Positions 7,417 through 22,477 are shown, counted from the stretch's first letter. The stretch is 64,000 nucleotides of DNA from Candidatus Nealsonbacteria bacterium (GCA_026396115.1 JAPLXL010000005.1:66967-130966); one strand, 5' to 3'. Numbers and translations: made by a program. Notes: generated by a model not told the origin, from the letters alone.

Positions 7417-7446
7417 AATATAAGAATTAAAATTAAACAAAATCAT

Positions 7447-7908: not shown

Positions 7909-7916
7909 AAAAATGT

Positions 7917-8422: not shown

Positions 8423-8462
8423 ATAAACATCTCTAAAAAATAAAATAAAGGAGGTAAGTACA

Positions 8463-8873
8463 TTGACAAAGTTTAATAATGATTCAGGTTACTGCTACAT
8501 AATTCTCAGAGTGAAGCCGAATATCATAGAACTCAATGATGACAAAGGAATTTTCGGTATAGTAGAGGAGATTACATCGAGAGCTGTCGGTGCAGAACGA
8601 GCGAACATAGCTAAAATAATTTTGTGGGGTCCAGATATCCTTCATGCTCATAAAGAAACAGAGGAAACTTATATCTGTGTCAAGGGGGAAGGAGAGATTT
8701 TCCTTATTGACCAGATATTTGAATTCATTCCAGGTGTCAGGGTAATAGTCAGACCTGGAATTTTACACGCTGCTAGACCAAAAAACTGTGGAAAGTTGGT
8801 TTTCTTATGTGTATCTTCACCAGCTTTCAATCCTAAGGATGTGTATAATGATCCACGCGGTCGGGCATGGTAA
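8463..8873 (+). CDS. cupin domain protein
   Basis: 136 aa. TTG start 8 nt after AGGAGG. HAHKETEETYICVKGEGEIF...ILHAARP is the two-motif cupin pattern. Confidence 0.55.
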   Translation: MTKFNNDSGYCYIILRVKPNIIELNDDKGIFGIVEEITSRAVGAERANIAKIILWGPDILHAHKETEETYICVKGEGEIFLIDQIFEFIPGVRVIVRPGILHAARPKNCGKLVFLCVSSPAFNPKDVYNDPRGRAW

Positions 8874-8972: not shown

Positions 8973-9015
8973 AAATAGGTTCTAACATCGTTCCATAAAC
9001 ACAGCTACGATTTTT
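8973..9015 (+). repeat. junction repeat type B
   Basis: aaataGGTTCTAACatcgttccataaacacAGCTAcgatttttt. Confidence 0.5.
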
Positions 9016-9089: not shown

Positions 9090-9380
9090 ATGAAAGAAAA
9101 GAGTTTCATGAAAGAATATCCTTTCAGTCTTTGCGAAGATATTTGTTCTTTGTTTCTGGTTATTTTAGTATTTGGAGTTTCGTTGATATCAGTTTGGGCA
9201 CAGAAAACTTCCCTTTTATCAGGAGAAATGAGAGGTGGAGTAATAGCTATAAGTTGGTCTATATTTTTTGGTTTTTTGGTTTATTCCCAATCTAAACTAT
9301 TTAAAAAGGAGGAAAAAAATGAAAGAAAAGATAGAAGAATCAATAAACGAGAAAAAGAAAGAAAAAACCTATACTGCTGA
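9090..9380 (+). CDS. small membrane protein, hypothetical
   Basis: AGGAGGTGAGG RBS. Two hydrophobic helices followed by a Lys/Arg/Glu-rich tail. Confidence 0.4.
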   Translation: MKEKSFMKEYPFSLCEDICSLFLVILVFGVSLISVWAQKTSLLSGEMRGGVIAISWSIFFGFLVYSQSKLFKKEEKNERKDRRINKREKERKNLYC

Positions 9381-9585
9381 TGTGGTTAAAGCCCATATTG
9401 GTATGTATAGTGACATGGTTCATCTGACAGATAATTGGCATATTATAATGTCTTCTGATATTATGAAACGTTTTGAAGATACGATAAAAAGGGTTCGAAA
9501 AGAATTTCTGGACGAATTTAAGGATGAGGGATTTTACCACTATCTAAATAAAATGGAAAATACACTCAAATTTTCCCGAAGATAG
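9319..9585 (+). CDS. hypothetical protein
   Basis: ATG 9319 follows AAGGAGG; the track start 9268 has no RBS. 88 aa. Stop TAG 9583-9585 overlaps the tRNA-like fragment. Confidence 0.45.
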   Translation: MKEKIEESINEKKKEKTYTADVVKAHIGMYSDMVHLTDNWHIIMSSDIMKRFEDTIKRVRKEFLDEFKDEGFYHYLNKMENTLKFSRR

Positions 9586-9649
9586 TAATAGGGGACTACT
9601 TGTTCTCTAAATCCGAGAGACGCTGGTTCAAATCCGGCCGGAGGTGCCA
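9583..9649 (+). pseudogene. 5'-truncated tRNA-like fragment: D arm, anticodon arm (CUA in anticodon position), T arm, 3' acceptor + CCA
   Basis: TAGT-aatagggg-ACTA c TTGTT-cuCUAaa-TCCGA gagac GCTGG-ttcaaat-CCGGC CGGAGGT g CCA. Standard tRNA numbering fits from position 10 to 76. No complementary 5' acceptor strand exists upstream. The anticodon stem has only 3 canonical pairs. Confidence 0.5.
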
Positions 9650-9664
9650 ATTCTATATATAAAT

Positions 9665-9688
9665 AGCGGGCAATTGCTCGCTTTTTTA
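9665..9688 (+). terminator. terminator hairpin (repeated unit)
   Basis: AGCGGGCAATTGCTCGCT + TTTTTT. The same unit occurs at 12016-12039; a related TTGCTCGCTTTTTT occurs at 11465-11478. Confidence 0.55.
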
Positions 9689-9834
9689 TTTGCCAAAAAT
9701 CGATAATTAAAAAATTGATAAAACCCCAAAAAAGAGTTAAATTTAAAGAAGATCAAATGTTAAAAGAAAATCCAAAAAATAGAATAAAGGATTTACCGAA
9801 AATTGAACGACCGCGCGAAAAACTCATCGCATAG
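9688..9834 (+). pseudogene. duplicated radC upstream region + truncated radC 5' end (25 codons)
   Basis: ATG 9757: MLKENPKNRIKDLPKIERPREKLIA*, versus intact RadC MLRENQRKNRIKDLPKIERPRERLIS at 21782. The upstream 70 nt match 18868-18935. Confidence 0.7.
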
Positions 9835-9871
9835 ATTGGCTGGAGAAAAAAAATAAGGTTATAATTTGAAT

Positions 9872-10519
9872 ATGAAATTATTTTTAACATCAGCGGGATT
9901 GCCGCCAGAAACAACCGAAGAGTTTCTAAAATTACTCAACAAAAAACCCGAAGAAACTAAAATCTGTTTTATTACCACCGCCTCCCATCCAGAAGAGAAT
10001 AAGTGGTATGTAGAAAAAGACAGGGAGAGGCTATCGGAGTTAGGTTTTAAAATAACCGAATTTGATTTAAAGAAAGAAAATGAGAACTCTCTAAGAGACA
10101 AATTAAAAAATTTCGATGTCATTTTTGTCGAAGGGGGTAATACTTTCTATCTTTTAAAATATGTTCGAGAGAGCGGTTTTGATGAAGCTTTAAAGTTATT
10201 TTTAGAAAGAGGGGGAATTTATCTTGGGGTAAGCGCAGGCACCATAGTTACTGGGTTGAATATCGAATCCGCTAATTGGAAATATGCAGATAAAAATATA
10301 GTAAATTTAGAAGATTTAACTGGTCTAAAATTAGTTCCGTATGTGTTTTCTGTCCATATCGATGAGTCTAATTTAGATGTTGTTAAAAATATCGCAAATA
10401 AAGTTGATTATCCTGTGATTGCTTTAACCGATAAGCAGGCGCTTTTAATAGATAATGGAATAAAAAAAATCGTTGGAGGAGGAAAAAAATATGTATTTAA
10501 TACGGATACTAAACTATGA
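9872..10519 (+). CDS. peptidase E-like (S51 family) protein
   Basis: MKLFLTSAG, ICFITTAS, VIFVEGGNTFYLL, LGVSAGTIV (nucleophile-Ser context). Confidence 0.7.
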   Translation: MKLFLTSAGLPPETTEEFLKLLNKKPEETKICFITTASHPEENKWYVEKDRERLSELGFKITEFDLKKENENSLRDKLKNFDVIFVEGGNTFYLLKYVRESGFDEALKLFLERGGIYLGVSAGTIVTGLNIESANWKYADKNIVNLEDLTGLKLVPYVFSVHIDESNLDVVKNIANKVDYPVIALTDKQALLIDNGIKKIVGGGKKYVFNTDTKL

Positions 10520-11058
10520 AAAATAATGCAAAATTAATAATAAGCATATTAATCTGCGAGCTTGTTGGAGTTTTGGGCTCAATTTTCACAACGCCGGCGA
10601 TTAAAAGCTGGTATTTTTTTCTAGAAAAGCCCTTCTTTAGTCCGCCAAACTGGGTTTTTGCTCCGGTTTGGACAGTTTTATTTTTATTGATGGGTATCTC
10701 TTTATATCTGGTATGGGCAAAGAATTGGGTCAGCAAAGTTCCGGTCGGTAAGCCGGAATGGAAATCGTGGAATCCCATTTCGGCCAAATTGTGGACCGGT
10801 TCTTGGAAAGAAGAAAATGCAGTTGCGATTTTTGTCCTCCAGTTGGTTTTGAATATTTTGTGGTCGGTAATATTTTTCGGCTTGAAATTGCCAGGGCTGG
10901 CCTTTTTCGAAATTTTAATGCTCTGGTTCGCGATATTATATACAATTATAAATTTTTACCGGATATCCAAATCCGCGAGTTTCTTGCTTTTACCTTATAT
11001 TCTCTGGGTCACCTTCGCCGCAATTTTGAATTTCGCCGTATGGAGATTAAATTTGTAA
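10516..11058 (+). CDS. tspO: TspO/MBR tryptophan-rich sensory protein
   Basis: 180 aa, 5 TM. FFSPPNWVFAPVWTVLFLLMGISLYLVW, LNILWSVIFFG. ATGA overlap with the upstream gene. Confidence 0.85.
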   Translation: MKNNAKLIISILICELVGVLGSIFTTPAIKSWYFFLEKPFFSPPNWVFAPVWTVLFLLMGISLYLVWAKNWVSKVPVGKPEWKSWNPISAKLWTGSWKEENAVAIFVLQLVLNILWSVIFFGLKLPGLAFFEILMLWFAILYTIINFYRISKSASFLLLPYILWVTFAAILNFAVWRLNL

Positions 11059-11222
11059 ATTCTTTGCACGATTATTATTCCACACCAGACCTGCCCTCGT
11101 GTTGTAAAAATTGAGATAAGATTTAACATATCTCAAATAAATCGATAAAGTTGAGATATAATATTCTATATTTCAATATATGCCTAAGAATAACTTAAAC
11201 GAAAGGTTTCGCTTTCTTGCTC

Positions 11223-11251
11223 TTGACAAGCTCTCTTGATTACAGTAATAT
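11223..11251 (+). promoter_or_regulatory. sigma-70-type promoter in an ORF-free region
   Basis: TTGACA, 17-nt spacer, TAATAT. About 25 nt upstream of the tRNA-like element. Confidence 0.4.
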
Positions 11252-11275
11252 GATAACATTGCCCTTTTAAAAATT

Positions 11276-11414
11276 GACCCCTGTGTTGATGAACGTATCG
11301 GATATTAACCTATCACAGCACTGTTTTAATTTGACTGCGAGTTTAAAACAACAAAGATCGCGGTATACCCATATTATACTGCTCCGATAGTCGGTTTGAC
11401 TCCGACCAGGGGTC
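11276..11414 (+). ncRNA. tRNA-like structured RNA candidate (unclassified)
   Basis: An 8-bp terminal helix GACCCCTG/CAGGGGTC closes a ~139-nt segment. Its 3' side carries a T-arm-like GTCGG-tttgact-CCGAC directly abutting the helix. An internal GTATA-cccatat-TATAC hairpin is present. No ORF. Promoter upstream, and AGCGAGCAA...TTGCTCGCTTTTTT downstream. Confidence 0.3.
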
Positions 11415-11579
11415 TCGTCTTATAGATAGCGAGCAAATACAAATATAATCAAAATATAAAGATACCAATTGCTCGCTTTTTTCTTTGCCAAATATTGACA
11501 ATTCTTAGCTATTTGTTATTCTTAATTAGACGCAAGTATGTACTTGCTGAGTTATTTAAAATTTAAGGGGGTGAATATA

Positions 11580-11771
11580 ATGAGAGACATTAAAAAATGT
11601 GTGTTGTTATGTCCTAATACGTTTGAAGTTTTGCAATATGAATTGAAACCTTTACCTTGTAGTTATCCTGAAGAAGAAAAGTGTGGGAGTTATGTAAAAA
11701 TAATCCGAAGAAAAGAAAGAAAAACAGCTATAACTTTTTGTAAATATCAGGAAAAAAATCGGGAGGTATAA
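11580..11771 (+). CDS. small Cys-rich hypothetical protein
   Basis: ATG 11580 follows AAGGGGG. 63 aa with 6 Cys. Confidence 0.35.
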   Translation: MRDIKKCVLLCPNTFEVLQYELKPLPCSYPEEEKCGSYVKIIRRKERKTAITFCKYQEKNREV

Positions 11772-11858
11772 ATATTCCCCTCTTTTTTCTTAACAAGTTT
11801 TTTTGAAAATAGTAATATATAGCATTAATCGTCATTTATTGTTCTTTTTAAAAATTGG

Positions 11859-11995
11859 GCCCCCGTAGCTTAGTTGACTAGAGCACACGTCTTTCAAACG
11901 TCAGTAGGACTAGAAAACTATCCGTCGGTTTAAATCAAGGGGGACTACTCGTTTTCTAAATCCGAGAGACCACTGGTTCAAATCAGTGCGGGGGT
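11859..11995 (+). tRNA. aberrant ~137-nt tRNA-like gene (chimera of two tRNA-like modules)
   Basis: A canonical 5' part reads GCCCCCG ta GCTT-agttgacta-GAGC a cACGT-cuUUCaa-ACGTc plus a GGAcTAG-aaaa-CTATCC arm. A second module is homologous to 9591-9632, with CUA in the anticodon position. This is followed by T arm CACTG-gttcaaat-CAGTG and CGGGGGT, which pairs with the 5' GCCCCCG. Confidence 0.4.
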
Positions 11996-12015
11996 TCAAT
12001 AACTTTTATATAAAT

Positions 12016-12039
12016 AGCGGGCAATTGCTCGCTTTTTTC
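12016..12039 (+). terminator. terminator hairpin (repeated unit)
   Basis: AGCGGGCAATTGCTCGCT + TTTTTT, identical to 9665-9688. Confidence 0.55.
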
Positions 12040-12072
12040 TTTGCCAAAATTGGAATAGAGTAGGGGTTTTAG

Positions 12073-12108
12073 AAAATCGCTAATAAGGTGGTTTTTTACA
12101 TGGATAAT
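12073..12108 (+). promoter_or_regulatory. junction repeat type A variant
   Basis: aaaaTCGCtaataaGGTGGttttttacaTGGATAAT. Confidence 0.4.
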
Positions 12109-12160
12109 GCAACCTTCCTTATTTTTTTGCGTTGTGATAATAATAAATTGTGCAATTTTT

Positions 12161-12718
12161 ATGGATATTTCGGAAGAAAAAAGAAAAATAGGAGAGGCCA
12201 AAAAAAATCCCCAGGCTTTCGGTCAGCTTTATGATGAATTCTATAGGCCGATTTTAAAATACATTCTAAGGAGGACTTCCGATATTGAATTGGCCCAGGA
12301 TTTGACCTCGCAAACATTCTTCAAGGCGTTAAAGGGACTGAAAAAATTCCGCTGGCAGAACATTTCCTTTTCGGCGTGGCTTTATAGGATAGCGACAAAC
12401 GAAGTCAATGATTTTTACCGTAGGAAAAATAGGATTATTCAAATAAGTCTGGAAAAGCTTCCCGAAATTCCGTCTCAGGATTCTGCAGACAGCGATTTAA
12501 AGCTGGCAGAGGCAGAATTGGAAAGCAAAAAAGAATTCAAAATACTCAGTCAGAAAATCCGAAAACTGTCGCTTATTTACCAGACGGTCATAACCCTTCG
12601 TTTTTTTGAGAAGAAAAAAATATCCGAAATATCGCAAATAGTCGGAAAATCCGAAGGAACGATAAAATCCCAGCTCCATCGCGCCCTTGAAACGCTGAAA
12701 AAGGAAATGGAAGGGTAA
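12161..12718 (+). CDS. ECF-type RNA polymerase sigma factor
   Basis: I prefer ATG 12161; the track start 12107 lies inside the promoter-like repeat. FGQLYDEFYRPILKYILRR, AQDLTSQTFFKAL, WLYRIATNEVNDFYR (region 2), ISEISQIVGKSEGTIKSQLHRALETLK (region 4). Confidence 0.8.
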   Translation: MDISEEKRKIGEAKKNPQAFGQLYDEFYRPILKYILRRTSDIELAQDLTSQTFFKALKGLKKFRWQNISFSAWLYRIATNEVNDFYRRKNRIIQISLEKLPEIPSQDSADSDLKLAEAELESKKEFKILSQKIRKLSLIYQTVITLRFFEKKKISEISQIVGKSEGTIKSQLHRALETLKKEMEG

Positions 12719-12768
12719 ATGCAACCTTTTTTAAAATCAGCCGTTGTAGTTGTAATAGGTATAACAAA

Positions 12769-13548
12769 ATGAAAACAGAAGAATTGATTAAAAAATTAGA
12801 AAATACAGATCTTCCCGAAATTGAAATCCAAAGTCACAAGACTTCTTTAAAGATGGCTCTTTTGGACTCGGATTATTTCAAAAAAACGGGCTCTTTTGAA
12901 ATTTTCCGCAGATATTTAGCTTTAACCGTCCCGGCCCTAGCAGTATTGGTAATCCTGGGAGTCGTCGTAATCAGCCCGAAACTGACCGAGGCAAAAGCCT
13001 TGAAGATTGCGAGAAATAATCCGGAAATAAATAGATTAATCGAAGAGAAAAAAATGGTTTTGAGCGACGTCAAGGTAAAGGACGGTAAAGCGTATATTCT
13101 GCTCAATTCGTCAAAAACCGAAAGCACAACTGGAATCAATGTCCAAAAAAATAACAATGCCTCTGAAGATATGGAAGGCGCGATAGTCGAGGTGGATCTT
13201 GATAAAAAAGAGGTTTCGCAGATAAATTCCATCAACAGCGAAGAGGTTGCGCCCTTGAATGATAAAGAAAAAGAATCGGCAGGAGAAATAGCAAATAGCG
13301 AGGAAGTTGTCGGCCAGATAGTGCCCAAGGAAGCGACAATTGAAAAAATTCAGTCGTCTCTGCCGAAAAAAATCCGATTGATAGAAAGAAACAATGTTAT
13401 TGAAGTAACTTCAGAAACAAACGGCGAACAAAAAGCCGAAGTTCATTATATATTGGATGAAAAAAAATGGGTCGTGAAGGTCAACTTAAATGAAAGAAAA
13501 GTGGAAGAAATCGAATACTCTTCCGATAATAACAAAGGTCGAGATTAA
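12769..13548 (+). CDS. single-pass membrane protein, possible anti-sigma factor
   Basis: 259 aa. One TM helix (LALTVPALAVLVILGVVVI) after a ~45-aa cytoplasmic N-terminus. Position directly after the ECF sigma gene. Confidence 0.35.
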   Translation: MKTEELIKKLENTDLPEIEIQSHKTSLKMALLDSDYFKKTGSFEIFRRYLALTVPALAVLVILGVVVISPKLTEAKALKIARNNPEINRLIEEKKMVLSDVKVKDGKAYILLNSSKTESTTGINVQKNNNASEDMEGAIVEVDLDKKEVSQINSINSEEVAPLNDKEKESAGEIANSEEVVGQIVPKEATIEKIQSSLPKKIRLIERNNVIEVTSETNGEQKAEVHYILDEKKWVVKVNLNERKVEEIEYSSDNNKGRD

Positions 13549-13583
13549 ACAAATTTTAAAATAATGAATCAATGAAAATAAAC

Positions 13584-14267
13584 ATGAAAAAATTTTTACT
13601 GGGCTTGGCAATTTTTACGACTTTGGTATCGGTCGTAGTGGTACAAGCCAAAAATAATAACAGCGATGATGAAGATATAAAACCCAATACAGCCAACGTC
13701 TTGAAATCCGACTTGAAGCAGAGGATTCAAATCAACGAAACATCAGCCGGGAACATGGTCTGGCTCACGGGGGCGAAAATAACCGAGATTTCCGGGACAA
13801 CGACTACCAACCTTATAAAAGTAAAGGTATTCGGCCAGGACTATAAGGTTCAGATTGCCACGAGCACCAACGTGGTCAGACAATACTGGGGGAAATCGGC
13901 AATTGATTTATCGGAGTTTTCGGTGGGGGATATTATAAACGTCTACGGGACTCTCGATACGGCCGATTATTTCCTGGTTCACGCGAAAACCGTCCGCAAC
14001 GTTTCGATTCAAAAGCTTCACGCGGTTTTCACTGGAAAAATTCTGAGTATTGCTTCGTCTACGGGTTCCTTTACTATGGAAGCGAAAAGAAACGGAACAA
14101 GCTCGCTTTTGGTTAACACCGATTCGAATACAAAAATCTATCAGGGAAAAAACCTGAAAAGTTTTTCCGATTTGCAGGTCGGTATGAAAGTGATGGTTCG
14201 CGGAATCTGGGATAAAACAATATCAAAGATTCAGGCGCTACTTGTAAGAATGCAGCCAGCCCACTAA
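13584..14267 (+). CDS. secreted hypothetical protein
   Basis: MKKFLLGLAIFTTLVSVVVVQA signal peptide. Two similar beta-rich halves. Confidence 0.45.
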   Translation: MKKFLLGLAIFTTLVSVVVVQAKNNNSDDEDIKPNTANVLKSDLKQRIQINETSAGNMVWLTGAKITEISGTTTTNLIKVKVFGQDYKVQIATSTNVVRQYWGKSAIDLSEFSVGDIINVYGTLDTADYFLVHAKTVRNVSIQKLHAVFTGKILSIASSTGSFTMEAKRNGTSSLLVNTDSNTKIYQGKNLKSFSDLQVGMKVMVRGIWDKTISKIQALLVRMQPAH

Positions 14268-14307
14268 AGTGGAGAATTCCGAGGACTAAACGAAAATTGA
14301 TAGGGAA

Positions 14308-14338
14308 AATCCGTCCCTCTTTACGGGGCGGATTTTTT
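14308..14338 (+). terminator. rho-independent terminator
   Basis: AATCCGTCCC-tctttac-GGGGCGGATT + TTTTT. Confidence 0.65.
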
Positions 14339-14440
14339 GTATAGTGCTGGAAAATAAAAGATTTTTAAATTTTTATTTGAATTTAGGCAAAGATGGAGGC
14401 GTCTCACAATCTATGAATAAGAAGCCAATGTCGCATAATC

Positions 14441-14513
14441 CGTATTGGTTCGAATCCTACCCACCGAGCCAAACAAAAACCACCTTTTTATTGAGGCGGT
14501 TTTTTGGTAGAAT
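14441..14513 (+). repeat. junction repeat B+A (T-loop-like variant)
   Basis: cgtattGGTTCGAATCCtacccaCCGAGCCAaacaaaaACCACCtttttattgaGGCGGTtttttGGTAGAAT. TAGAAT ends 8 nt before ATG 14522. Confidence 0.55.
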
Positions 14514-14521
14514 AAAGAAAG

Positions 14522-15604
14522 ATGTTAATTACGCAAGGTAAAACTAATTGGAAATTTATACTAATTGTAGTTATTCTAGCCGCTATTGTTGGCGGGGGAG
14601 CTTTATGGTTTTCAGCAAAAAAAGAGTTACCTTATCAGCCGCCTGAAATCAAGAAAGTAGACGAAATCGCAAATTGGAAAACTTATAGAAATGAAGAGTA
14701 TGGATTTGAAATAAAATATCCGGAAAGTTGGGAAGTATTAAATAATAATCCTTATGGTGAGATACTGGATTTTTCTTTTCGCGATAAAAAGTATGAGGGA
14801 TCATTTGAATGGCCAGGATTGCGTATTACAGACAAGGACTTAGTAGGCGAGTTTAGTGATACTAAAATTCCCTTAAGGGTTTTTAAGAAAGAAGAGACAG
14901 AAAATGAAGTGATAAAAATCTACTTTGATGAAAGGGAAAGAAGATTATATGCAACTTGTGCTCTTTATCTTGAACCAGCCATAATTGAAACCTGCAATCA
15001 GATGCTTTCTACTTTTAGGTTTTTAGAAGAAGACACAGAGGATGAAACTGCTGACTGGAAGACATACAGGAATGAAGAATATGGGTTTGAAGTGAGATAC
15101 CCAATAGATTGGGAAATGCAAGAGAGAGGGGATGGTGTTAACTATGCTGAGCTTTTTTATCTTGAAAAAGAAGTAGGAGATTCGCAGTTTCAATTCATAG
15201 ACTTAGGAGTAGACGGTGACTGGTATCAGGTAACACGGATGCATTCAGAAATCATAATAGATCCTACAGATGCAAATGATCCAGATTCATGTCTTTCTAA
15301 TTTTGTAAATGTCCAAAGGGGAGAAATTGATTTTGCCGGACGAAAAGCCATTTCTTGGAAGCTTTTAACCGAAGAGGGTAATGTTTGGAGATCACATATT
15401 AAAATTTTAAATCCTCCCAGAGATTGGAAGGAAAATAATTGGATTCTAATCAACTATCTTATTTATGACACAGGGGAAAATTGTAAGATTCCAGTCAGCT
15501 ATTGTTCAAGGTTTGAGGGAAGAGTAAAGGTTTTCTGTAACACAGATAAAAAAGATAGCGAAATCGTTAACCAAATGCTTTCTACTTTTAGGTTTTTAGA
15601 CTAA
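14522..15604 (+). CDS. membrane-anchored protein with internally duplicated domain
   Basis: 360 aa, N-terminal TM. ANWKTYRNEEYGFEIKYPESWEV...CNQMLSTFRFLE is repeated as ADWKTYRNEEYGFEVRYPIDWEM...VNQMLSTFRFLD. Confidence 0.6.
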   Translation: MLITQGKTNWKFILIVVILAAIVGGGALWFSAKKELPYQPPEIKKVDEIANWKTYRNEEYGFEIKYPESWEVLNNNPYGEILDFSFRDKKYEGSFEWPGLRITDKDLVGEFSDTKIPLRVFKKEETENEVIKIYFDERERRLYATCALYLEPAIIETCNQMLSTFRFLEEDTEDETADWKTYRNEEYGFEVRYPIDWEMQERGDGVNYAELFYLEKEVGDSQFQFIDLGVDGDWYQVTRMHSEIIIDPTDANDPDSCLSNFVNVQRGEIDFAGRKAISWKLLTEEGNVWRSHIKILNPPRDWKENNWILINYLIYDTGENCKIPVSYCSRFEGRVKVFCNTDKKDSEIVNQMLSTFRFLD

Positions 15605-15680
15605 AAATAGGCTCTAAATCTACTAATCTTTCCCTAATTCTTCTCCAATCTAAGGTTCTGAATGCGTCCAATAGGGGAAG
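15604..15680 (+). repeat. junction repeat type B (subfamily shared with 16661-16712)
   Basis: ttctccaatctaaGGTTCTGAAtgcgtccaataggggaag, versus ctcttccaatcaatGGTTCTAAAtgagtcctgtagggggag. Confidence 0.5.
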
Positions 15681-15686
15681 CTACTC

Positions 15687-15715
15687 TTGACTTTTAATTT
15701 AAAGGGTGTTATTAT
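15687..15715 (+). promoter_or_regulatory. sigma-70-type promoter
   Basis: TTGACT, 17-nt spacer, TATTAT. Confidence 0.45.
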
Positions 15716-15770
15716 ATAAACAAGCCTGAAATAGGGTTGTTATTTAAAAATGAAATGAGGTGTTTTAAAA

Positions 15771-16127
15771 ATGTCTGAATTAAAGAAGAAAGCTTGGCAA
15801 GAACTCTTGAAGAAAGAACCAACCGATAAAGAATTGATTTATATTATCAAGTATGTGGAATCCCTAAGAGAGGAAGCTGGGCAAAAACTCTTAGAGAGAG
15901 ATCCAAGCAATGAAGGATTGATTTGTATCATGGGGCATGTATGGTCTCTAGCGGAAGAAGCTTGGAAAAAATTCTTAGAGCAAAATCCAACTAATGATGA
16001 TCTGCGTGATATTATTTTGCGTGTATCATCTTTATCATCTTTAAGAGATAGAGCTGGGAAAAAACTCTTGGAACAAAATCCAAGTAATGATGATCTATGT
16101 TTTATTATGCAACATTGTGACTTTTAA
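15771..16127 (+). CDS. alpha-helical repeat protein (four ~29-aa repeats)
   Basis: Repeating LLxxxPxNxxLxxIxxxVxSLxEEAxxK units (HEAT/PBS-lyase-like). Confidence 0.5.
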   Translation: MSELKKKAWQELLKKEPTDKELIYIIKYVESLREEAGQKLLERDPSNEGLICIMGHVWSLAEEAWKKFLEQNPTNDDLRDIILRVSSLSSLRDRAGKKLLEQNPSNDDLCFIMQHCDF

Positions 16128-16195
16128 AGAAGGTGAATGAAAGAGATGAATATTAAAAGGTAATAAAATGAATGAATTTTGGAAAGGAGTTAATA

Positions 16196-16546
16196 ATGAT
16201 AGTAATTAAAGTTTGGTGTCTTCCATCTGATCAGAGCGAAGATGATTTGAATCGTCTTCATCAGGCGATTGTGAAAGCTGCAGTATCTTTTCCCGAACTT
16301 TGTCTTCAAGACGAAAACGATATGACTTGTCTTTTTCCAGCCGATCTTATGAAGTATGGATTGGGAGAAGAAATTATCGTTGAAATTGATGGCTTGCCTG
16401 ATATGCTTTGGAAAAACCGAACAGTTCGTGAGCAACTTGCTCGGTGTGTTGGGGAAAGTGTTTCAGCTCTTTATCCCAGGGCAAAAGTTGAATGCTCTGT
16501 TAGAGAATTCAACCCTTCACAAGGAGTTTGGACTCAGAATAAGTAG
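16196..16546 (+). CDS. hypothetical protein
   Basis: ATG 16196 follows GGAAAGGAG. 116 aa. Confidence 0.45.
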   Translation: MIVIKVWCLPSDQSEDDLNRLHQAIVKAAVSFPELCLQDENDMTCLFPADLMKYGLGEEIIVEIDGLPDMLWKNRTVREQLARCVGESVSALYPRAKVECSVREFNPSQGVWTQNK

Positions 16547-16554
16547 TGAAGAAT

Positions 16555-16595
16555 AAATTCCTCGTAGAGAAGTATTTCTACGAGGAATTTTTATT
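16555..16595 (+). terminator. rho-independent terminator
   Basis: AAATTCCTCGTAGA-gaagtatt-TCTACGAGGAATTT + TTT. Confidence 0.7.
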
Positions 16596-16660
16596 TAATT
16601 TTATATTATAACTACTTTTTTTTGACTAATAAACATTAAATTACTTATTTCTTCCTTTAT

Positions 16661-16745
16661 TCTCTTCCAATCAATGGTTCTAAATGAGTCCTGTAGGGGG
16701 AGTTTGCTTCAAAGAATTGCCAATCAGGCGGTTTTTTGGTAGAAT
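16661..16745 (+). repeat. junction repeat B+A
   Basis: ...caatGGTTCTAAAtgagtcc...gaaTTGCCaatcaGGCGGttttttGGTAGAAT. Confidence 0.55.
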
Positions 16746-16787
16746 GATAATGTACGGATTAAAATAAAAGGTAATTATTTTATCAAC

Positions 16788-17672
16788 ATGAAAGGTTACG
16801 TAACAAATATTGAAAAAAAGACATTGGAAAACGATAATTTCCGCGAGGTTCTCTATACTTCAAAACATAGTCAATTAGTGCTCATGACCCTTAGGCCAAA
16901 AGAAGAAATCGGAATGGAGGTTCATCCAGATAATGACCAATTTTTCCGTTTTGAAAAAGGTCAGGGTAAGTGCATAATTGATGGTAACGAGTATGAGTTA
17001 AGAGATGGAGTGGCAGTAGTTGTTCCAGCAGGCGCTCAGCATAATATAATCAATACCTCTAACACAGATGAGCTAAAGTTATATACTATTTATTCACCAG
17101 CTCATCATAAAGATGGTATTGTCCGACCAACCAAGAAAGAAGCCGAAACAAATGAAGCAGAATTTGATGGTGCTACTAGTGAATATGCTATTACTAGAGA
17201 ATATACTAGTGAATTTAAGTATTGTCCAAGTTGCGGCAGTAAGATCGTCACCGACAATTCTTTTTTCTGCTCGCATTGCGGGCGTAAACTCCCAAAAATG
17301 GAGAATACGGGCGACTTTAATATAGAACAAGCAAGTTTTGATACTAATGAATCATTCCAACCAAAGGGTGGTGGTCAAGTCCAATCTATTCGTGGAAGGC
17401 CGGTTAAAGGGCAAAATTCTCTAGTAGGAGCAATACGAGCCCTACTGTTTATAGCATTTATTATAGGTATAATATTTTTTGTAAGACAATTTTTGGGCGG
17501 AGGCAAAGTCAGAAATTGTATAGCTTCCGTTTTAGGAAATCCTCCAGAATGCAGCGATTGTGATAATGTGTCTAGAAATACCACTATGAATGGTAGATCT
17601 ATAGGCAAGTGTATTCCTACCCATGTAGAAGGGGATATGTGTAATCTTGATTGCGGAGGGACGAAATATTAG
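16788..17672 (+). CDS. cupin - zinc ribbon - TM - Cys-rich C-terminal fusion protein
   Basis: N-terminal cupin (GMEVHPDNDQFFRFEKGQG...VPAGAQHNIIN), then YCPSCGSKIVTDNSFFCSHCGRKL, then TM (ALLFIAFIIGIIFFV), then a Cys-rich tail. Confidence 0.6.
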   Translation: MKGYVTNIEKKTLENDNFREVLYTSKHSQLVLMTLRPKEEIGMEVHPDNDQFFRFEKGQGKCIIDGNEYELRDGVAVVVPAGAQHNIINTSNTDELKLYTIYSPAHHKDGIVRPTKKEAETNEAEFDGATSEYAITREYTSEFKYCPSCGSKIVTDNSFFCSHCGRKLPKMENTGDFNIEQASFDTNESFQPKGGGQVQSIRGRPVKGQNSLVGAIRALLFIAFIIGIIFFVRQFLGGGKVRNCIASVLGNPPECSDCDNVSRNTTMNGRSIGKCIPTHVEGDMCNLDCGGTKY

Positions 17673-17705
17673 GTTTGTATTGCTTGAATTGGAAAATTCT
17701 CAATA

Positions 17706-17782
17706 AACTAAGTTCTAATATTGTACCATCCTCGGAGCCAAACAAAAACCGCCTTTTTATTGAGGCGGTTTTTTGGTAGAAT
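17706..17782 (+). repeat. junction repeat B+A
   Basis: aactaAGTTCTAATattgtaccatCCTCGGAGCCAaacaaaaACCGCCtttttattgaGGCGGTtttttGGTAGAAT. Confidence 0.6.
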
Positions 17783-17793
17783 GAGGTAATAAT

Positions 17794-18192
17794 ATGGAAA
17801 AAAAGATTAACAGATTTGTATATTGGACACCAAGAATTTTGTCAATCATCTTTATACTATTTTTAGCTATGTTCTCTTTAGATGTTTTTGATATGAAATT
17901 AGGTTTCTGGGAAACAGCATTGGGGTTATTTATGCATAATATCCCGGTATTTGTTTTGTCGATTGTTCTGTTAATATCTTGGAAACGCGAGATTGTCGGA
18001 GGAATTGCTTTTAATTTAGCCGGAGTATTATATGTTGTAATAATATTGATGAATATGTTGAGGAATTCATTCGAATGGTATATGGTATCTTGGATCCCAA
18101 TAGTTTCTGGACCAGCATTTCTTATAGGTGTTTTATTTATTATCAATTGGCGCAAAAAACAAAATAATCAAAAGGATGCGTCTACAAAATAG
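17794..18192 (+). CDS. multi-pass membrane protein, hypothetical
   Basis: 132 aa, 4 hydrophobic helices. Confidence 0.5.
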   Translation: MEKKINRFVYWTPRILSIIFILFLAMFSLDVFDMKLGFWETALGLFMHNIPVFVLSIVLLISWKREIVGGIAFNLAGVLYVVIILMNMLRNSFEWYMVSWIPIVSGPAFLIGVLFIINWRKKQNNQKDASTK

Positions 18193-18256
18193 GTTCTAAC
18201 GTCTTCCGTTCCTCGGAGCTACGAAAATCGCCAATCAGGCGGTTTTTTGGTAGAAT
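18187..18256 (+). repeat. junction repeat B+A (best-preserved copy)
   Basis: aaataGGTTCTAACgtcttccgttCCTCGGAGCTAcgaaaaTCGCCaatcaGGCGGttttttGGTAGAAT. Confidence 0.6.
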
Positions 18257-18295
18257 AATAGATAGATGAGTTTATAAATAGTATCTAATTAATTT

Positions 18296-18775
18296 ATGCC
18301 ACGAGTTCTTACCCAAACATTCGGAGTAGTCGGAGCAATATTAGAAAGAAACGGAAAAATACTTTTGGTTAAAGAAGCAAAAGAAATAGCCAAGGGAATG
18401 TGGAGTCATCCTGCTGGTTGGATTGATGTAGGGGAAAATCCCATTGAAGCAGTAAAAAGAGAAGTAAAAGAAGAAACAGGTTTTGATTTTAAACCAACAC
18501 ACATTCTTGGGGTTTACTCTTTGTTTAAGAAAAACCTAAAACAAAAATTTGGTATTACACCGCACCCCATTAAAATTATTTTTATTGGTAAAATATCCGA
18601 CAATAAAACAGGGAAGCTTCATAATGATGTTTCCGAAACTAAATTGTTTACACCGGAAGAAATATATCAGATGGATATAAGTACATTAAGAGACATGGAT
18701 ATAAAAAAGATGGTTAAAGATTATTTTGCGGGTAAATCTTATCCTTTAGATCTTTTAACTCATACAGAAGAATAA
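18296..18775 (+). CDS. NUDIX hydrolase
   Basis: Nudix box: PAGWIDVGENPIEAVKREVKEETG. Confidence 0.8.
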   Translation: MPRVLTQTFGVVGAILERNGKILLVKEAKEIAKGMWSHPAGWIDVGENPIEAVKREVKEETGFDFKPTHILGVYSLFKKNLKQKFGITPHPIKIIFIGKISDNKTGKLHNDVSETKLFTPEEIYQMDISTLRDMDIKKMVKDYFAGKSYPLDLLTHTEE

Positions 18776-18867
18776 ATGGGTGCAGGTATTCCAAAGTTAA
18801 AAACATAGGATACCAAGCCCTATAGCTATCCTTCATTAAAACGAAACCGTCAGGTTTTGCTTTTTAA

Positions 18868-18979
18868 TTTGGCAAAAATCGCCAATTGACAGTTTGATAA
18901 AAACCTAAAAAAGAGTTAAATTGGAAGAAGATCAAATGTCAAAAGAAAATCAAAGAAAAAATAGAATAAAGGATTTACC
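18868..18979 (+). pseudogene. second duplicated radC upstream region + radC 5' stub (~14 codons)
   Basis: tttggcaaaaatcg...ttgataaaaacctaaaaaagagttaaattggaagaagatcaaATGtcaaaagaaaatcaaagaaaaaatagaataaaggatttacc matches 9688-9800 and the first codons of radC at 21782. Confidence 0.65.
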
Positions 18980-19004
18980 CCAAAAGTTTTCCACCTTTTC
19001 GCCC

Positions 19005-19032
19005 TTGACATAGATACTTGATTTGGTATAAA
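19005..19032 (+). promoter_or_regulatory. sigma-70-type promoter with extended -10 for the AbiE operon
   Basis: TTGACA, 16-nt spacer ending in TGg, TATAAA. ATG 19045 is 12 nt downstream. Confidence 0.5.
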
Positions 19033-19044
19033 ATGATACTAAAT

Positions 19045-19638
19045 ATGGAAACTATATCGAAAGACAAAGCGATTAAAATTTTGCATAAAAAGAAAATTTC
19101 TTTTTTTGATATTATCGATGCTAAAAAGATTTTCGGTATTAAAAAAGAAAATACGCTTTATAAACTCTTACAAAGGTTAGAAAAAAGCGATGTTGTGCAA
19201 AGAATCGTCAAGGGTAAATATCTTTTTTCATTTAACGAAGCTAACGATTTTGAATTAGCCAATTTTTTAGTTAACCCCTCTTATATCTCTTTAGAATCCG
19301 CTCTTTCTTTCTATGGAATTTTGCCTCAATTTCCTTACACTATTACTTCTGTTACTCCCTTAAAATCAAAAAAGATAATTTATCAAGACAAAGAATACGA
19401 ATTCAGTCATTTGGAAAGTAAATATTTTTTTGGCTTTGTGAAAAGAGAGAGGTTTTTAATTGCTACACCTGAAAAAGCGCTTTTGGACGAATTCTATTTT
19501 ATGGCGAAAAAATTGAGAAAAATTCATTTTGAAGATTTAGATTTAAAATCAGTCGATAAGAAAAAACTCCAAACTTTAATTAAAAAATATCATTTCCTTC
19601 CTCTCCAAAATTTAATTAAAAAACTGAAATTAATTTAA
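19045..19638 (+). CDS. AbiEi-family type IV antitoxin / transcriptional regulator
   Basis: The track ORF 19018 starts upstream of the -10, so I prefer ATG 19045. N-terminal wHTH-like FFDIIDAKKIFGIKKENTLYKLLQRLEKSDVVQRIVKGKYLF. Paired with AbiEii. Confidence 0.7.
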   Translation: METISKDKAIKILHKKKISFFDIIDAKKIFGIKKENTLYKLLQRLEKSDVVQRIVKGKYLFSFNEANDFELANFLVNPSYISLESALSFYGILPQFPYTITSVTPLKSKKIIYQDKEYEFSHLESKYFFGFVKRERFLIATPEKALLDEFYFMAKKLRKIHFEDLDLKSVDKKKLQTLIKKYHFLPLQNLIKKLKLI

Positions 19639-19654
19639 TTTTTAAATATTAAAT

Positions 19655-20416
19655 ATGTTAGACAAGGAAACAGCCCAAGATTTATCCAAAAAATTAAATA
19701 TCGATTTATTTACAATCTATCGCGAGTATCTTCAACTTTTATTTTTAAAATATTTCTATAATCAAAAAGAAACAGACAAGGTTTATTTTAAAGGCGGAAC
19801 AGCTTTAAGGTTTTTATTCGGGTCCTTTAGATTTTCTGAAGATCTAGATTTTACTACTCTCTTATCAAAAGCAAAAACAAAAACCTTAATAGATAAAACC
19901 CTTCAAGATTTAAGTAAAGAAACGGAGGGCGTAGAGTTTAGAGAAACCGAATCAATTGCTAATTCTTTCTCGGGTAGAATTTTTCAAGAAAATCCAGAAT
20001 TCAATTTTCCTTTAACAATTAGATTAGACTTTTCTTTCAGAGAAAAACCCCTTCTTCCTGACACCTCTTTTATTGAGGCAATTTTTCCTATCGGACCTTA
20101 TCCTCAAGTTTCTCATTTTAAAATAGAGGAGTTGATGGCAGAAAAAGTAAGAGCAATCTTAACGAGAACCAGAGGTAGGGATTTTTTTGACCTTTATTTT
20201 ATGCTTTCGAAAAAAATCCTCATCGATTGGGAATTAGTAAATAAAAAAATGGCTTTGTATAAAAAGAAAGCAAATCTTAAGCAGCTAATTGAGATTATTG
20301 AAAAATTTCCCCAATCGGAAATAAAAGAAGATTTAACAAAATTTCTCCCAACTACTCATCGAAATTTAGTGACAAAAATAAAAGATTTAACCTTAGAAAA
20401 ATTAAAAAATTTATGA
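19655..20416 (+). CDS. AbiEii/AbiGii-family nucleotidyltransferase toxin
   Basis: YFKGGTALRFLFGSFRFSEDLDF (NTase G-x-S...D-x-D region), KVRAILTRTRGRDFFDL. Confidence 0.8.
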   Translation: MLDKETAQDLSKKLNIDLFTIYREYLQLLFLKYFYNQKETDKVYFKGGTALRFLFGSFRFSEDLDFTTLLSKAKTKTLIDKTLQDLSKETEGVEFRETESIANSFSGRIFQENPEFNFPLTIRLDFSFREKPLLPDTSFIEAIFPIGPYPQVSHFKIEELMAEKVRAILTRTRGRDFFDLYFMLSKKILIDWELVNKKMALYKKKANLKQLIEIIEKFPQSEIKEDLTKFLPTTHRNLVTKIKDLTLEKLKNL

Positions 20417-20460
20417 AACTCAAAAATCTACCGACTAATAATTAACTATTCAACGAGTAT

Positions 20461-21744
20461 ATGACCCAAAAAACTTTAATAATAATAGTAATAGCAACAA
20501 TTGTTGTAATTGGAGGGGTGTTTCTGTTTACACTCGTCCCAGAAACAACACCAGAGCCAACATCAAAACCAACCCCGGAACCGGTAACAAAACCCGAAGC
20601 TATAGAAGGAGTTACAACTGCCAATAACCAGTTTGCCCTGGATTTCTACACAAAAGCCAAAGACGAAGAAGGAAACAAAGAAGAGAATATTTTCTTTTCC
20701 CCTTATAGTTTATCAATCGCCCTGGCCATGACTTATGAGGGAGCTAAAGGGAAAACAGCAGAAGAAATGGAAGATGTTTTTTACTTTCCAAAAGACAATG
20801 ATTTTCGCCGGAAGGCGTTTTTAAGCCTTCATAGCTGGCTTACAAGGGAAGATACAGAACACGAACTTAATATTGCCAATGCTCTCTGGGCACAAAAAGA
20901 TTTTACTTTCTTGCAGGAATATTTTGATGTTATTACCACCTATTATCGGGGTTTAATTGAAAACCTTGATTTTACAGGAGATCCCGAAGGTTCAAGAATA
21001 ACAATCAACCAATGGGTAGAAGAACAAACCAAAGAAAAGATAAAGGATTTAATTCCTTCAGGAGTGATAAATGCTCTAACCCGATTAATTCTCACCAATG
21101 CCATTTACTTTAAAGGAGAGTGGGTACAGGAATTTAATCAAGAAGAAACAAAAGAAGAGAATTTTTATATTACCTCTGAAGAAACAGTAAAGGTTAATAT
21201 GATGCGGCGCTTAGATGAAGAAGCGGAATTCCCTTATTATGAAACAGAAGACCTTCAAATCCTTGAAATGCCTTATTCGGGTGAAGAAACCTCAATGCTT
21301 GTTTTACTTCCTAAAGAAGACAACTTAGAAAAAGCAGAAAAGCAGTTAACCGGAGAAAATCTTGTTATTTGGCAAGAAAATCTAAAAAAACAACGAGTTA
21401 AAGTGTATTTTCCCAAATTCAAATTAGAAACTAAATACTTTTTAAAACCGATCCTCGGTCAAATGGGAATGCCCACTGCTTTTACCGAAGCAGCTGATTT
21501 TTCCGGCATGACAGGTAAAAAAGATTTAATGATTGCTGAAGTAATCCATCAGGCTTTTGTTGAAGTGGATGAGAAAGGAACTGAAGCAGCAGCTGCAACA
21601 GCTGTGGAAATGGAACTGACTGCTATGCCAGCCGAGCCGGTTATTCCTGTTTTCCGCGCTGACAGACCGTTTATCTTTCTAATTCAAGAAAAAGAAACAG
21701 GCAGTATTCTCTTTATGGGGAGAGTAGTCAATCCTGCTTTGTAA
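20461..21744 (+). CDS. serpin family protease inhibitor, membrane-anchored/secreted
   Basis: 427 aa. NIFFSPYSLSIALAMTYEGAKGKTAEEM, hinge/RCL EVDEKGTEAAAATAVEM, FRADRPFIFLIQE. Confidence 0.9.
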   Translation: MTQKTLIIIVIATIVVIGGVFLFTLVPETTPEPTSKPTPEPVTKPEAIEGVTTANNQFALDFYTKAKDEEGNKEENIFFSPYSLSIALAMTYEGAKGKTAEEMEDVFYFPKDNDFRRKAFLSLHSWLTREDTEHELNIANALWAQKDFTFLQEYFDVITTYYRGLIENLDFTGDPEGSRITINQWVEEQTKEKIKDLIPSGVINALTRLILTNAIYFKGEWVQEFNQEETKEENFYITSEETVKVNMMRRLDEEAEFPYYETEDLQILEMPYSGEETSMLVLLPKEDNLEKAEKQLTGENLVIWQENLKKQRVKVYFPKFKLETKYFLKPILGQMGMPTAFTEAADFSGMTGKKDLMIAEVIHQAFVEVDEKGTEAAAATAVEMELTAMPAEPVIPVFRADRPFIFLIQEKETGSILFMGRVVNPAL

Positions 21745-21747
21745 ATC

Positions 21748-21769
21748 TGATGACGAAGTCCTCTTCGCC
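21748..21769 (+). repeat. half copy of the E element, the only one seen in the accessory zone
   Basis: GATGACGAAGTCCTCTTCGCC, between the serpin stop and the radC ATG. Confidence 0.4.
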
Positions 21770-21781
21770 TTACAAACTCAA

Positions 21782-22477
21782 ATGTTAAGAGAAAATCAAA
21801 GAAAAAATAGAATAAAGGACTTACCTAAAATTGAACGGCCAAGAGAGAGATTGATTTCAAAAGGAGCGGAGAACTTAAAAGACGAAGAGCTTTTGGCTAT
21901 TCTTCTAAGAACTGGTAGAGAAGGCAAAAATGTAATTGAGTTAGCAAAGCAAATTTTGAGAAAATACTCCAAAAAGCGACTTTTTAAAATGAAGTATGAG
22001 GATTTAATAAAAATCAAAGGAATAAATTCCGCTAAAACCTGCACAATTTTAGCTGCTGCTGAATTAGTAAAAAGAGCGCTGAAAGTACAAGATGAAACCT
22101 TGCCAATTATTAAATCAGTTAAAGATGTTGTAGCCCAAGCTGTTTATTTAAGAGATAAAACTCGCGAACATTTAATGACTATTTATCTTAATGCCAGAAA
22201 CGAGATGGTCTGGAAAAAACAATCAACATTTATCGGCACATTAAACGCCAATTTAGTTCACCCGCGAGAAATTTTTGAAGAAGCCCTTAAACATAATGCC
22301 GCCTCTGTAATTTTGGTTCATAACCACCCGTCAGGGGATAGCGAGCCATCAGAAGACGACTTAGAAATCACTAAACGTATTATTGAAGCCGGCAAAATAA
22401 TGGGAATTGACGTTTTAGACCACATCATCATTACCAAAACCAAAGTTTTTAGTTTCAAGGAGAACAAATTGATTTGA
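21782..22477 (+). CDS. radC: RadC-like JAB domain protein
   Basis: 231 aa. LSDEELLAILLRTG-like ELLAILLRTGREGKNV, and JAMM motif VHNHPSGDSEPSEDD. Confidence 0.9.
   Translation: MLRENQRKNRIKDLPKIERPRERLISKGAENLKDEELLAILLRTGREGKNVIELAKQILRKYSKKRLFKMKYEDLIKIKGINSAKTCTILAAAELVKRALKVQDETLPIIKSVKDVVAQAVYLRDKTREHLMTIYLNARNEMVWKKQSTFIGTLNANLVHPREIFEEALKHNAASVILVHNHPSGDSEPSEDDLEITKRIIEAGKIMGIDVLDHIIITKTKVFSFKENKLI

Follow-up and report, generated by a model that had tools for sequence, protein, structure and literature searches.

Promoter-bearing stubs of radC point to a core-gene-anchored defence-gene hotspot in a Candidatus Nealsonbacteria genome

Introduction

In Escherichia coli and other bacteria, hotspots and defence islands lie beside conserved core genes; many of them carry no mobility gene and exchange their content through homologous recombination in the flanking core gene. 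Homology-facilitated illegitimate recombination has been demonstrated experimentally in transformable Acinetobacter, Streptococcus pneumoniae and Pseudomonas stutzeri. How defence genes are gained and shuffled in bacteria of the candidate phyla radiation (CPR) is poorly understood. Here we describe a locus around the conserved gene radC in a 64-kb stretch (the window, whose coordinates are used throughout) of the genome of Candidatus Nealsonbacteria, a groundwater CPR bacterium with a tiny genome. What appear to be readable, ordered scars of repeated gene gain lie beside radC, with no mobile-element machinery in sight.

The locus also contains tRNA-like genes. The 3' ends of tRNA genes are the commonest targets of genomic islands, and bacterial group I introns lie in the tRNA anticodon loop. 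Bacterial allo-tRNAs are long-variable-arm tRNAs with non-cognate anticodons, and intron-bearing tRNAs are a further point of comparison. Nematode nev-tRNAs are likewise reported as long-variable-arm (class II) tRNAs with non-cognate anticodons (PMC3333845). radC itself is a known target of site-specific elements: the Tn554 family inserts at att554 in staphylococcal radC and encodes its own recombinases (10.1101/2020.09.30.320143).

We propose, with moderate confidence, that radC in these genomes is the homology anchor of a defence-island hotspot, and that truncated copies of its start are scars of recombination that was homologous on one side and illegitimate on the other.

Results

The start of radC occurs three times in the window

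The window was analysed by BLASTN against itself, TBLASTN, Pfam, Rfam, ARAGORN, a covariance model (R1), and promoter and terminator scans. All comparison loci (L002-L074) are metagenome contigs. An earlier note on this DNA had placed the start of intact radC at 21782 and truncated copies of its 5' end at two upstream sites, each preceded by the same ~70-nt sequence. Pfam, TBLASTN and self-BLASTN bear out the gene start, the stub coordinates and the repeats:

21782-22477 (+), intact radC, 231 aa, similarity from 21778; Pfam UPF0758_N 1.9e-26, RadC 4e-42
9715-9756 (+), radC promoter copy 1 and 5' untranslated region; promoter 9715-9743, TTGATA-N17-TAAATT (promoter scan)
9757-9834 (+), stub A, a radC 5' end of 25 codons and TAG, MLKENPKNRIKDLPKIERPREKLIA and stop; TBLASTN E 7.8e-7
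18842-18985 (+), copy C, made up of a terminator-like hairpin (18842-18859), promoter copy 2 and stub C
18894-18922 (+), radC promoter copy 2, TTGATA-N17-TAAATT (promoter scan)
18936-~18985 (+), stub C, a radC 5' end of ~16 codons, MSKENQRKNRIKDLP...; TBLASTN E 0.002

The intact gene is a member of the RadC/UPF0758 family, with both UPF0758_N and the RadC JAB domain present at 21782-22477 (Pfam). Besides this gene, TBLASTN of RadC against the window recovered the two stubs only, and no extra 3' fragments of radC. Homology to radC stops at about +75 in stub A, immediately before the -35 box of the promoter for the following gene (9836), and at +44 to +51 in stub C. Self-BLASTN aligned 9680-9802 with 18859-18984 (85%, E 7e-29), 9753-9827 with 21778-21855 (81%, E 1e-11) and 18932-18984 with 21778-21830 (91%, E 2e-10). 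The last of these, between stub C and the intact gene, is a 53-nt repeat, 91% identical overall, that encloses a 30-nt identical core. With such E-values, the repeats are genuine and not a product of chance.

Both stubs do have the common sequence in front of them, and it proves to be a promoter-like site, TTGATA-N17-TAAATT; the region of copy 1 is 85% identical to 18859-18938. In the window this promoter stands before the stubs only, not before the intact gene, where stub similarity begins at -4 (4 nt before the ATG) and the stop codon of the preceding serpin gene lies 37 nt upstream. In L002 and L063, a radC promoter of the copy 1 type is found upstream of intact radC. Scanning the metagenomes with the radC promoter returned mostly promoters before other genes, or truncated copies, and its similarity is partly that of a generic promoter type of these genomes. 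The radC-type promoter (TTGATAAAAnCCnAAAAAnGAGTTAAATT) also fronts LexA, ATP-cone, TspO and MazG genes or a gene fragment (L032 836-935; L033 4191-4290; L034 10878-10946, 12273-12317 and 14995-15062), and L032 and L033 keep the promoter only. Its spread may reflect shared regulation or a portable promoter.

Related loci include an empty site and independent stubs

RadC relatives derive from Parcubacteria/Paceibacterota metagenome-assembled genomes. The uninterrupted tRNA-radC arrangement that the earlier note had suggested looking for exists in L063, where a tRNA-like gene with a CCA end (of type X, below), terminator, radC promoter and intact radC follow one another directly, 86% identical to window 9675-9828. 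Other relatives lack the blocks of accessory genes. L038 is without window ~9712-19000 and retains the tRNA-like fragment A (below), serpin and radC at 89-94% identity. Fragment A is followed there by 430 nt of other sequence, after which come a different AbiE pair, a separate radC stub (MKMQDVPKIERPREKL, at 4922-4969 between AbiEii and serpin), then serpin and radC (94%); the AbiE pair is only 30-33% identical in amino acids to the pair at the same place in the window. L039 and L042 are without window 5.6-9.06 kb. Five of the six proteins that L042 shares with the window are 94-100% identical, and the sixth (4107-4553) is a 41%-identical allele; L042 then has fragment A, terminator, promoter and a radC start identical to stub A at 51 of 52 positions, where the contig ends. 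In L065-L074, NUDIX, stub C, AbiE, serpin and radC are all present at 96-97% identity, with differing genes upstream of NUDIX; in L066/67, another stub, of 35 codons, and new cargo come after the serpin.

Outside the window, independent stubs occur in L002, L008, L029-31, L034, L038 and L066/67; at least eight independent 5' stubs are seen. The genes they accompany differ: NYN in L002, an AbiE-like pair in L008, LexA-methyltransferase in L029-31 and L066, and a serpin in L038. A mirror case affects the other end of the gene. In L007 (2251-3981), an NYN gene is inserted after radC, with a copy of the final ~88 nt of radC on each side; next comes the HsdR-like gene that in L064 is found immediately after radC. 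This NYN gene is 81% identical to window ORF (open reading frame) 39643-40395, 17 kb downstream of radC, and NYN genes adjoin radC in L002, L003 and L005 too. We found no description of radC stubs in CPR bacteria in the literature.

Most of the 120 closest RadC homologues, out of 2231 at E<=1e-60, lie on contigs of a few kb, many of ~1 kb, and two RadC sequences (P0011 and P0012) recur unchanged on 18 and 24 contigs, respectively. Short contigs around radC fit assemblies that break at variable flanks. In L043-L062, which hold these two sequences on contigs of mostly 1-4 kb, an HTH_17 (excisionase-like) gene of 62 aa nearly always precedes and overlaps radC, and a gene that is type I restriction HsdR wherever it can be annotated begins 5 nt after radC.

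Junctions are scattered and radC alleles are exchanged

Mapped onto intact radC, the junctions between radC-derived sequence and cargo fall at -8, ~0, +44 to +51, +71, +75, +97, +101 and +102. A single crossover site would not produce such scatter. The upstream limits of the right-hand radC copies vary as well, from -4 to about -110. The one candidate for microhomology was AAAG at the left boundary of L065 and AATTGA in L034.

The gene itself has been reshuffled. In sliding comparisons, window radC is 86% identical to L063 over nt 1-100, 99-100% over nt 101-250 and 67-75% beyond; against L064 it is 97-100% identical and falls to 86-90% in the last 200 nt only, where the downstream genes differ. 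Judged from these identities, radC is a recombination mosaic with breakpoints inside the gene. Stub alleles are exchanged too: strains that are 96-97% identical on both flanks carry differing alleles of stub C. L065 and L069 have an L063-type allele in the stub, and the gene after the serpin in L069 has the MSKENQRKNR allele, an arrangement that is reversed in the window. The junction between stub C and cargo, GGATTTACCCCAAAAGT followed by TTTCCACC, is unchanged across the allele-swapped strains. L065 and L069 keep this junction although 18797-18909 is missing, and some strains are without 93 nt of terminator and promoter. The kept junction together with the differing allele indicates that a patch was replaced by recombination. 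Whether the stubs match some other radC better than the resident one has an equivocal answer: the stub C peptide equals the N-termini of many foreign radC alleles and differs from resident radC at 2 of 15 residues, and at the DNA level the difference is small. Taken together, the mosaic gene, scattered junctions and allele swaps suggest that homologous exchange is frequent, with crossovers within radC and near it.

The junctions also bear on site-specific integration, in which non-autonomous cassettes with a radC-start-like attP would be inserted by a recombinase acting in trans (for example of the tyrosine/Xer type), leaving the stubs as attL. The best argument for it is clustering: stub ends gather at +44 to +51 with three different cargos (window C, L002 and L029), at +71 to +75 (L038 and window A) and at +97 to +102 (L008, L034 and L066/67). 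The L066/67 junction, AAAGA followed by TTTACCCCATAGT, resembles that of stub C, the 53-nt repeat with its identical core would suit an att site, and radC is a target of the Tn554 family. Yet the clusters away from ~+50 and the junctions at -8 and ~0 do not suit a single site, nor do the variable left boundaries of the right-hand copies or the duplicated radC 3' end in L007. Sequences just past the junctions, which would be the arms of the element, are unrelated. No recombinase or transposase family had a Pfam match in any ORF tested across the window, in agreement with the earlier note, and no recombinase or transposase is among the cargo gene lists of the relatives either. Viral contigs were scanned for the tRNA module, for the 5' core of radC and for the 5' half of the tRNA; these scans yielded nothing, or chance A-rich matches without radC, and no attP-like copy. 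We regard site-specific integration as possible but unlikely.

A family of tRNA-like genes lies beside the stubs

The tRNA-like fragment and terminator that precede stub A do recur downstream, as the earlier note had recorded. More exactly, the fragment is the 3' third of an insert-bearing tRNA gene that Rfam recognises at 11859-11996, and a third, divergent member of the family (X, 11277-11413) had been missed:

9581-9650 (+), copy A, 5' part lost; the gene's own -10 box (GATAGTAATA, 9581-9590) is fused to a 3' module (9591-9650)
9665-9687 (+), terminator copy 1, AGCGGGCAATTGCTCGCT and T run, then the TTTGCCAAAAATCG motif (terminator scan)
11222-11482 (+), copy X; promoter TTGACA-17-TAATAT 11223-11251, RNA 11277-11413, terminator copy 11428-11482
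11538-11771 (+), small Cys-rich ORF between X and B, 77 aa, no family match
11790-12038 (+), copy B; promoter TTAACA-17-TAATAT 11790-11818, tRNA 11859-11996, terminator copy 2 12016-12038
Insert-bearing tRNA genes: window 11859-11996; L034 10168-10317; L040 1212-1364; L041 570-722

In copy B the anticodon loop reads CUUUCAA (UUC), with 68 nt of extra sequence lodged between anticodon stem and T arm. This gene scores 31 bits with the Rfam tRNA model (RF00005; gathering score 29) and 136 bits with R1, and is missed by ARAGORN; the L034 gene reaches 41 bits with the Rfam model. L034-L037, L040 and L041 have a homologue of ORF 9319, a promoter (TTGACA...TAGTAAT) and a full-length 150-153-nt gene of the same architecture. 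Full-length genes of the family measure 138-153 nt, with inserts of 68, 76 or 79 nt between anticodon and T arms, outside the length and variable region of normal tRNAs. Acceptor, D and T stems are maintained by compensatory changes across four distinct homologues, in keeping with the cloverleaf of RF00005; the family is defined by three independent full-length sequences and X. The inserts vary in sequence and length except for the last ~20 nt. Folded alone, they are no more stable than shuffles, and a structured insert arm is not claimed. The insert-bearing gene always lies downstream of homologues of ORF 9319-9585.

After removal of the insert in silico, ARAGORN called tRNA-Glu(UUC) in the window, tRNA-Stop(UUA) in L034 and tRNA-Ala(AGC) in L040/41, so that the anticodon differs between orthologues. 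TAA is the main stop codon in both genomes examined, which makes ordinary decoding by the UUA form unlikely.

Copy X has a perfect 7-bp acceptor stem (ACCCCTG/CAGGGGT), the T arm GTCGG-TTTGACT-CCGAC and a non-canonical core. Its promoter and terminator align with those of B, L034 and L040, the terminator being a copy with an expanded loop. The fold (-40.2 kcal/mol, z -3.1) was equalled in 0 of 200 shuffles, and X is detected neither by Rfam nor by R1.

Copy A retains the conserved hairpin, the T arm GCTGG/CCGGC and the acceptor 3' strand CGGAGGT, then G-CCA, and scores 46 bits with R1 (E 6e-9). BLASTN aligns 9591-9734 with 11940-12087 of B (78%, E 1e-24). In alignment with B, L034 and L040, A has a clean internal deletion from the -10 box to the last 31 nt of the insert, and the same truncated form follows the ORF 9319 homologue in L038, L039 and L042. 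In our reading, the ancestral tRNA-like gene stood immediately upstream of radC and left copy A as its internal-deletion remnant. A search of the window for the missing 5' half of A, as in a split or permuted gene, gave copy B only. Rfam at gathering and relaxed thresholds, searched for tmRNA or another RNA family, returned tRNA for B only and otherwise chance-level matches.

Integrase-borne islands in the tRNA-like 3' end, with A and B as attL and attR and the integrases since lost, would be the textbook reading of such repeats, and a 148-nt direct repeat of tRNA 3' part and terminator does bracket S51-TspO. The anatomy contradicts it. A partial copy upstream of the complete genes X and B on the same strand is the wrong order for 3'-end integration; the fusion of A to its own -10 box marks an internal deletion, and the same locus occurs in L038, L039 and L042 without B nearby. 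A and B have flanks that are 94% identical, but compensatory changes distinguish their T stems and acceptor strands, and they share no identical core; they are paralogues rather than the two sides of a single att site. X adds a third gene, itself complete, and no integrase was found among the ORFs tested across the window. Copies A, X and B are therefore a small gene family rather than att scars, and tRNA-targeted islands are scarcely credible as an explanation here.

Tandem duplication of a tRNA-like/promoter/radC-start unit in place, by slippage or unequal crossing-over, with later insertions and no foreign radC alleles, must also be weighed. The terminator AGCGGGCAATTGCTCGCTTTTTT occurs exactly twice in the window (9665-9687 and 12016-12038); the terminators of A and B are thus identical here and unlike those of L038 and L034, which suggests concerted evolution. 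In L034, a radC stub is fused directly to a promoter -35 box at the shared AATTGA, which also counts for this reading. Against this, stub alleles are at least as close to the radC of other genomes as to the resident gene, cargo differs among near-identical strains, and the mosaic radC reveals exchange between lineages. We consider this explanation very unlikely.

R1 found no further family members in 292 kb of related loci, and insert-bearing CPR tRNAs were not found described in the literature. L004 (8982-9057) has a 76-nt tRNA-like gene with an 8-nt anticodon loop, called 'tRNA-???' (anticodon gcca) by ARAGORN and below the Rfam threshold; terminator, radC-type promoter, an HTH/Doc toxin-antitoxin pair and radC follow it. 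A LigT-type 2'-5' RNA ligase (56385-56954) may be of interest for the insert-bearing tRNA genes. It adjoins a set of AMMECR1, LigB/Memo-like and radical SAM genes within 52308-56954 (-).

Cargo genes and recurring intergenic modules

The + strand carries nearly all genes within 2.7-49.9 kb. Around radC they are laid out as follows:

9872-10519 (+), peptidase S51; Pfam 1.3e-36
10516-11058 (+), TspO/MBR; Pfam 7.2e-47
12161-18775 (+), cargo block: ECF sigma factor, putative anti-sigma, DUF5666, PsbP-like, TPR, cupin with zinc ribbon, DUF7670 and NUDIX (Pfam)
19018-20416 (+), AbiEi-like antitoxin (no Pfam match) and AbiEii toxin (Pfam 4.5e-32)
20461-21744 (+), serpin, abutting radC; Pfam 4e-125
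9.8-21.7 kb, Pfam layout overall: S51 peptidase, TspO, ECF sigma factor, DUF5666, PsbP-like, cupin, DUF7670, NUDIX, AbiEii, serpin
Downstream of radC to 33.6 kb, Pfam layout: defence island with SDH-type protease, DUF6941, type III restriction-modification, SIR2_2, GmrSD and a second methylase
Beyond 33.6 kb, Pfam layout: housekeeping genes

The two blocks that the stubs had been thought to delimit, 9835-18867 and 18980-21781, are both composite. Window TspO is 87% identical in DNA to the TspO of L034, which there lies 2 kb downstream of the full-length tRNA-like gene. The genes of 12161-18775 are set apart by a recurring terminator/promoter module. Identical AbiEii genes lie on at least 24 contigs, and the serpin-radC junction is common to the window, L038, L064 and L069.

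The C-terminus of AbiEii (20376-20416) reads ...TKIKDLTLEKLKNL and stop, and its DNA resembles radC codons 10-18 at the position of the L038 stub. It is possible that this end preserves a third stub that has decayed and become part of the ORF. We considered such a stub at 20376-20460 by comparing KIKDL... with the L038 stub, and the similarity was too weak to claim one.

The intergenic module has two parts. The first is often GGTTCTAAC... with a GGAGCTA/GGAGCCA motif that recalls the 3' end of a degenerate tRNA; the second consists of the hairpin CGCCAAnnAGGCGG, a T run and GGTAGAAT (terminator and extended -10). Copies, 65-95% alike, mark the majority of gene boundaries in 4-19 kb and fall at the breakpoints of presence and absence relative to L039 and L042:

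Intergenic module copies, first set: 4553-4625, 6168-6203, 7383-7420, 8329-8366, 8973-9010, 12075-12109
Intergenic module copies, second set: 14440-14520, 15650-15690, 16670-16749, 17706-17789, 18187-18260, 36506-36540

A direct repeat of a promoter module (5532-5614 and 8389-8473, 81%) flanks four of the five genes (5604-8393) that are absent from L039 and L042, each of which has a single copy of it.

Discussion

We favour, somewhat above even chance, the reading of radC as a homology anchor in a defence-island hotspot. Incoming DNA would carry cargo beside its own radC, which would pair with resident radC and recombine homologously on one side. The other side would be closed by an illegitimate or short-homology join, often in the first ~100 nt of resident radC or, for insertions downstream, in its last ~90 nt. 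The resident promoter and first 15-35 codons would stay behind as a dead stub, and the incoming copy would supply the new gene start. Repeated rounds could build the observed order of promoter and stub A, S51-TspO and following genes, promoter and stub C, AbiE, serpin and radC. Afterwards, stubs, intact radC and tRNA-like/terminator modules would keep recombining with each other and with other strains, swapping alleles and cassettes. The joins would be of RecA type on one side and illegitimate on the other, by homology-facilitated illegitimate recombination or a single-crossover variant of it, and the DNA would presumably enter by natural uptake.

Breakpoints inside a conserved gene, and junctions and cargo that vary between close relatives, are what such an anchor would be expected to leave. 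The empty site, presence/absence polymorphism, independent stubs, the L007 mirror, mosaic radC and the absence of a recombinase match among the ORFs tested in the window all support it. Of the earlier idea of serial insertion at a tRNA/radC junction, the part that stands is successive insertion upstream of radC beside a tRNA-like gene; the tRNA as target does not. Nor do the repeats read as att or target-site copies, given junctions from ~-8 to +102, the L007 mirror, the mosaic gene, the swapped stub alleles, the internal deletion in A, and X and B as complete paralogues. What is new is a core-gene-anchored hotspot that would record its own history as promoter-bearing stubs, with an unusual tRNA family as a by-product.

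Several points weigh against the anchor model. The junctions are non-random: eight independent events fall in three clusters, and the ~+50 cluster spans three cargos, which hints at a preferred cleavage or crossover position. Microhomology at the junctions is no more than a candidate feature. The serpin-radC junction at -4, without a promoter, needs an extra, unexplained event. Metagenome contigs are used throughout, with some chimeric assembly at repeats possible, and natural competence and RecA are assumptions of a model built on 64 kb of the genome.

A bolder conjecture takes the clustering at face value. The radC start, and less so its end, would serve Nealsonbacteria and related CPR bacteria as a site dedicated to capturing cassettes, where an enzyme encoded elsewhere would cut or recombine at preferred positions (~+50, +75 and +101), giving integron-like stacking of promoter-bearing defence cassettes without attC or a linked integrase. 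The insert-bearing tRNA genes with their free-running anticodons, including an ochre-suppressor form, could make functional RNAs that depend on an as yet undescribed step of bacterial RNA processing. We hold this combination to be quite unlikely.

If the anchor model is true, defence islands in CPR bacteria can arise by ordinary homologous recombination among strains, and the breaks in assemblies around radC are accounted for as well. The process appears to be ongoing, as the same pattern is found in many related metagenome contigs. The insert-bearing tRNA genes, missed by ARAGORN and in one case with a stop-codon anticodon, raise the question of tRNA processing or of non-decoding tRNA-like RNAs in CPR bacteria.

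Comparison with known systems

Like nev-tRNAs and allo-tRNAs, the tRNA-like genes combine a cloverleaf with extra sequence between anticodon and T arms and with a varying anticodon (UUC, UUA, AGC). Unlike class II tRNAs, they have an insert of 68-79 nt, several times any class II variable arm, that is poorly conserved and not unusually stable; and unlike in intron-bearing bacterial tRNAs, it does not lie in the anticodon loop. The locus shares with tRNA-linked islands the direct repeats of tRNA 3' part and terminator that bracket accessory genes, but the order of copies is wrong, the promoter fusion is an internal deletion, there is no integrase among the ORFs tested and the copies are diverged paralogues.

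No integron integrase was found, and repeat scans gave no conserved inverted repeat at cassette ends (attC models were not run). As with Tn554, radC is a recurrent insertion hotspot at which truncated remnants of the gene are left. Tn554 differs in using one site in the 3' region and in not duplicating tens of target bases, neither of which is seen here; no TnpA, TnpB or TnpC genes were found at the locus, and in place of one fixed site it has junctions from -8 to +102 and a 3' case.

The closest likenesses are with the two systems that need no dedicated recombinase. Homology-facilitated illegitimate recombination has the same one-sided homologous anchor and illegitimate join and likewise places foreign genes beside a conserved gene; here it is proposed from sequence, and the junctions cluster more tightly than purely random joins would. 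With core-gene hotspots, the locus shares variable defence and toxin-antitoxin cassettes (AbiE, serpin, NYN, restriction-modification, SIR2, GmrSD) beside a conserved gene, with content that varies between close strains. It differs from them in its host, a CPR bacterium with a tiny genome, and in that the ends of the anchor gene are partly duplicated with each event, giving ordered arrays of promoter-bearing stubs.

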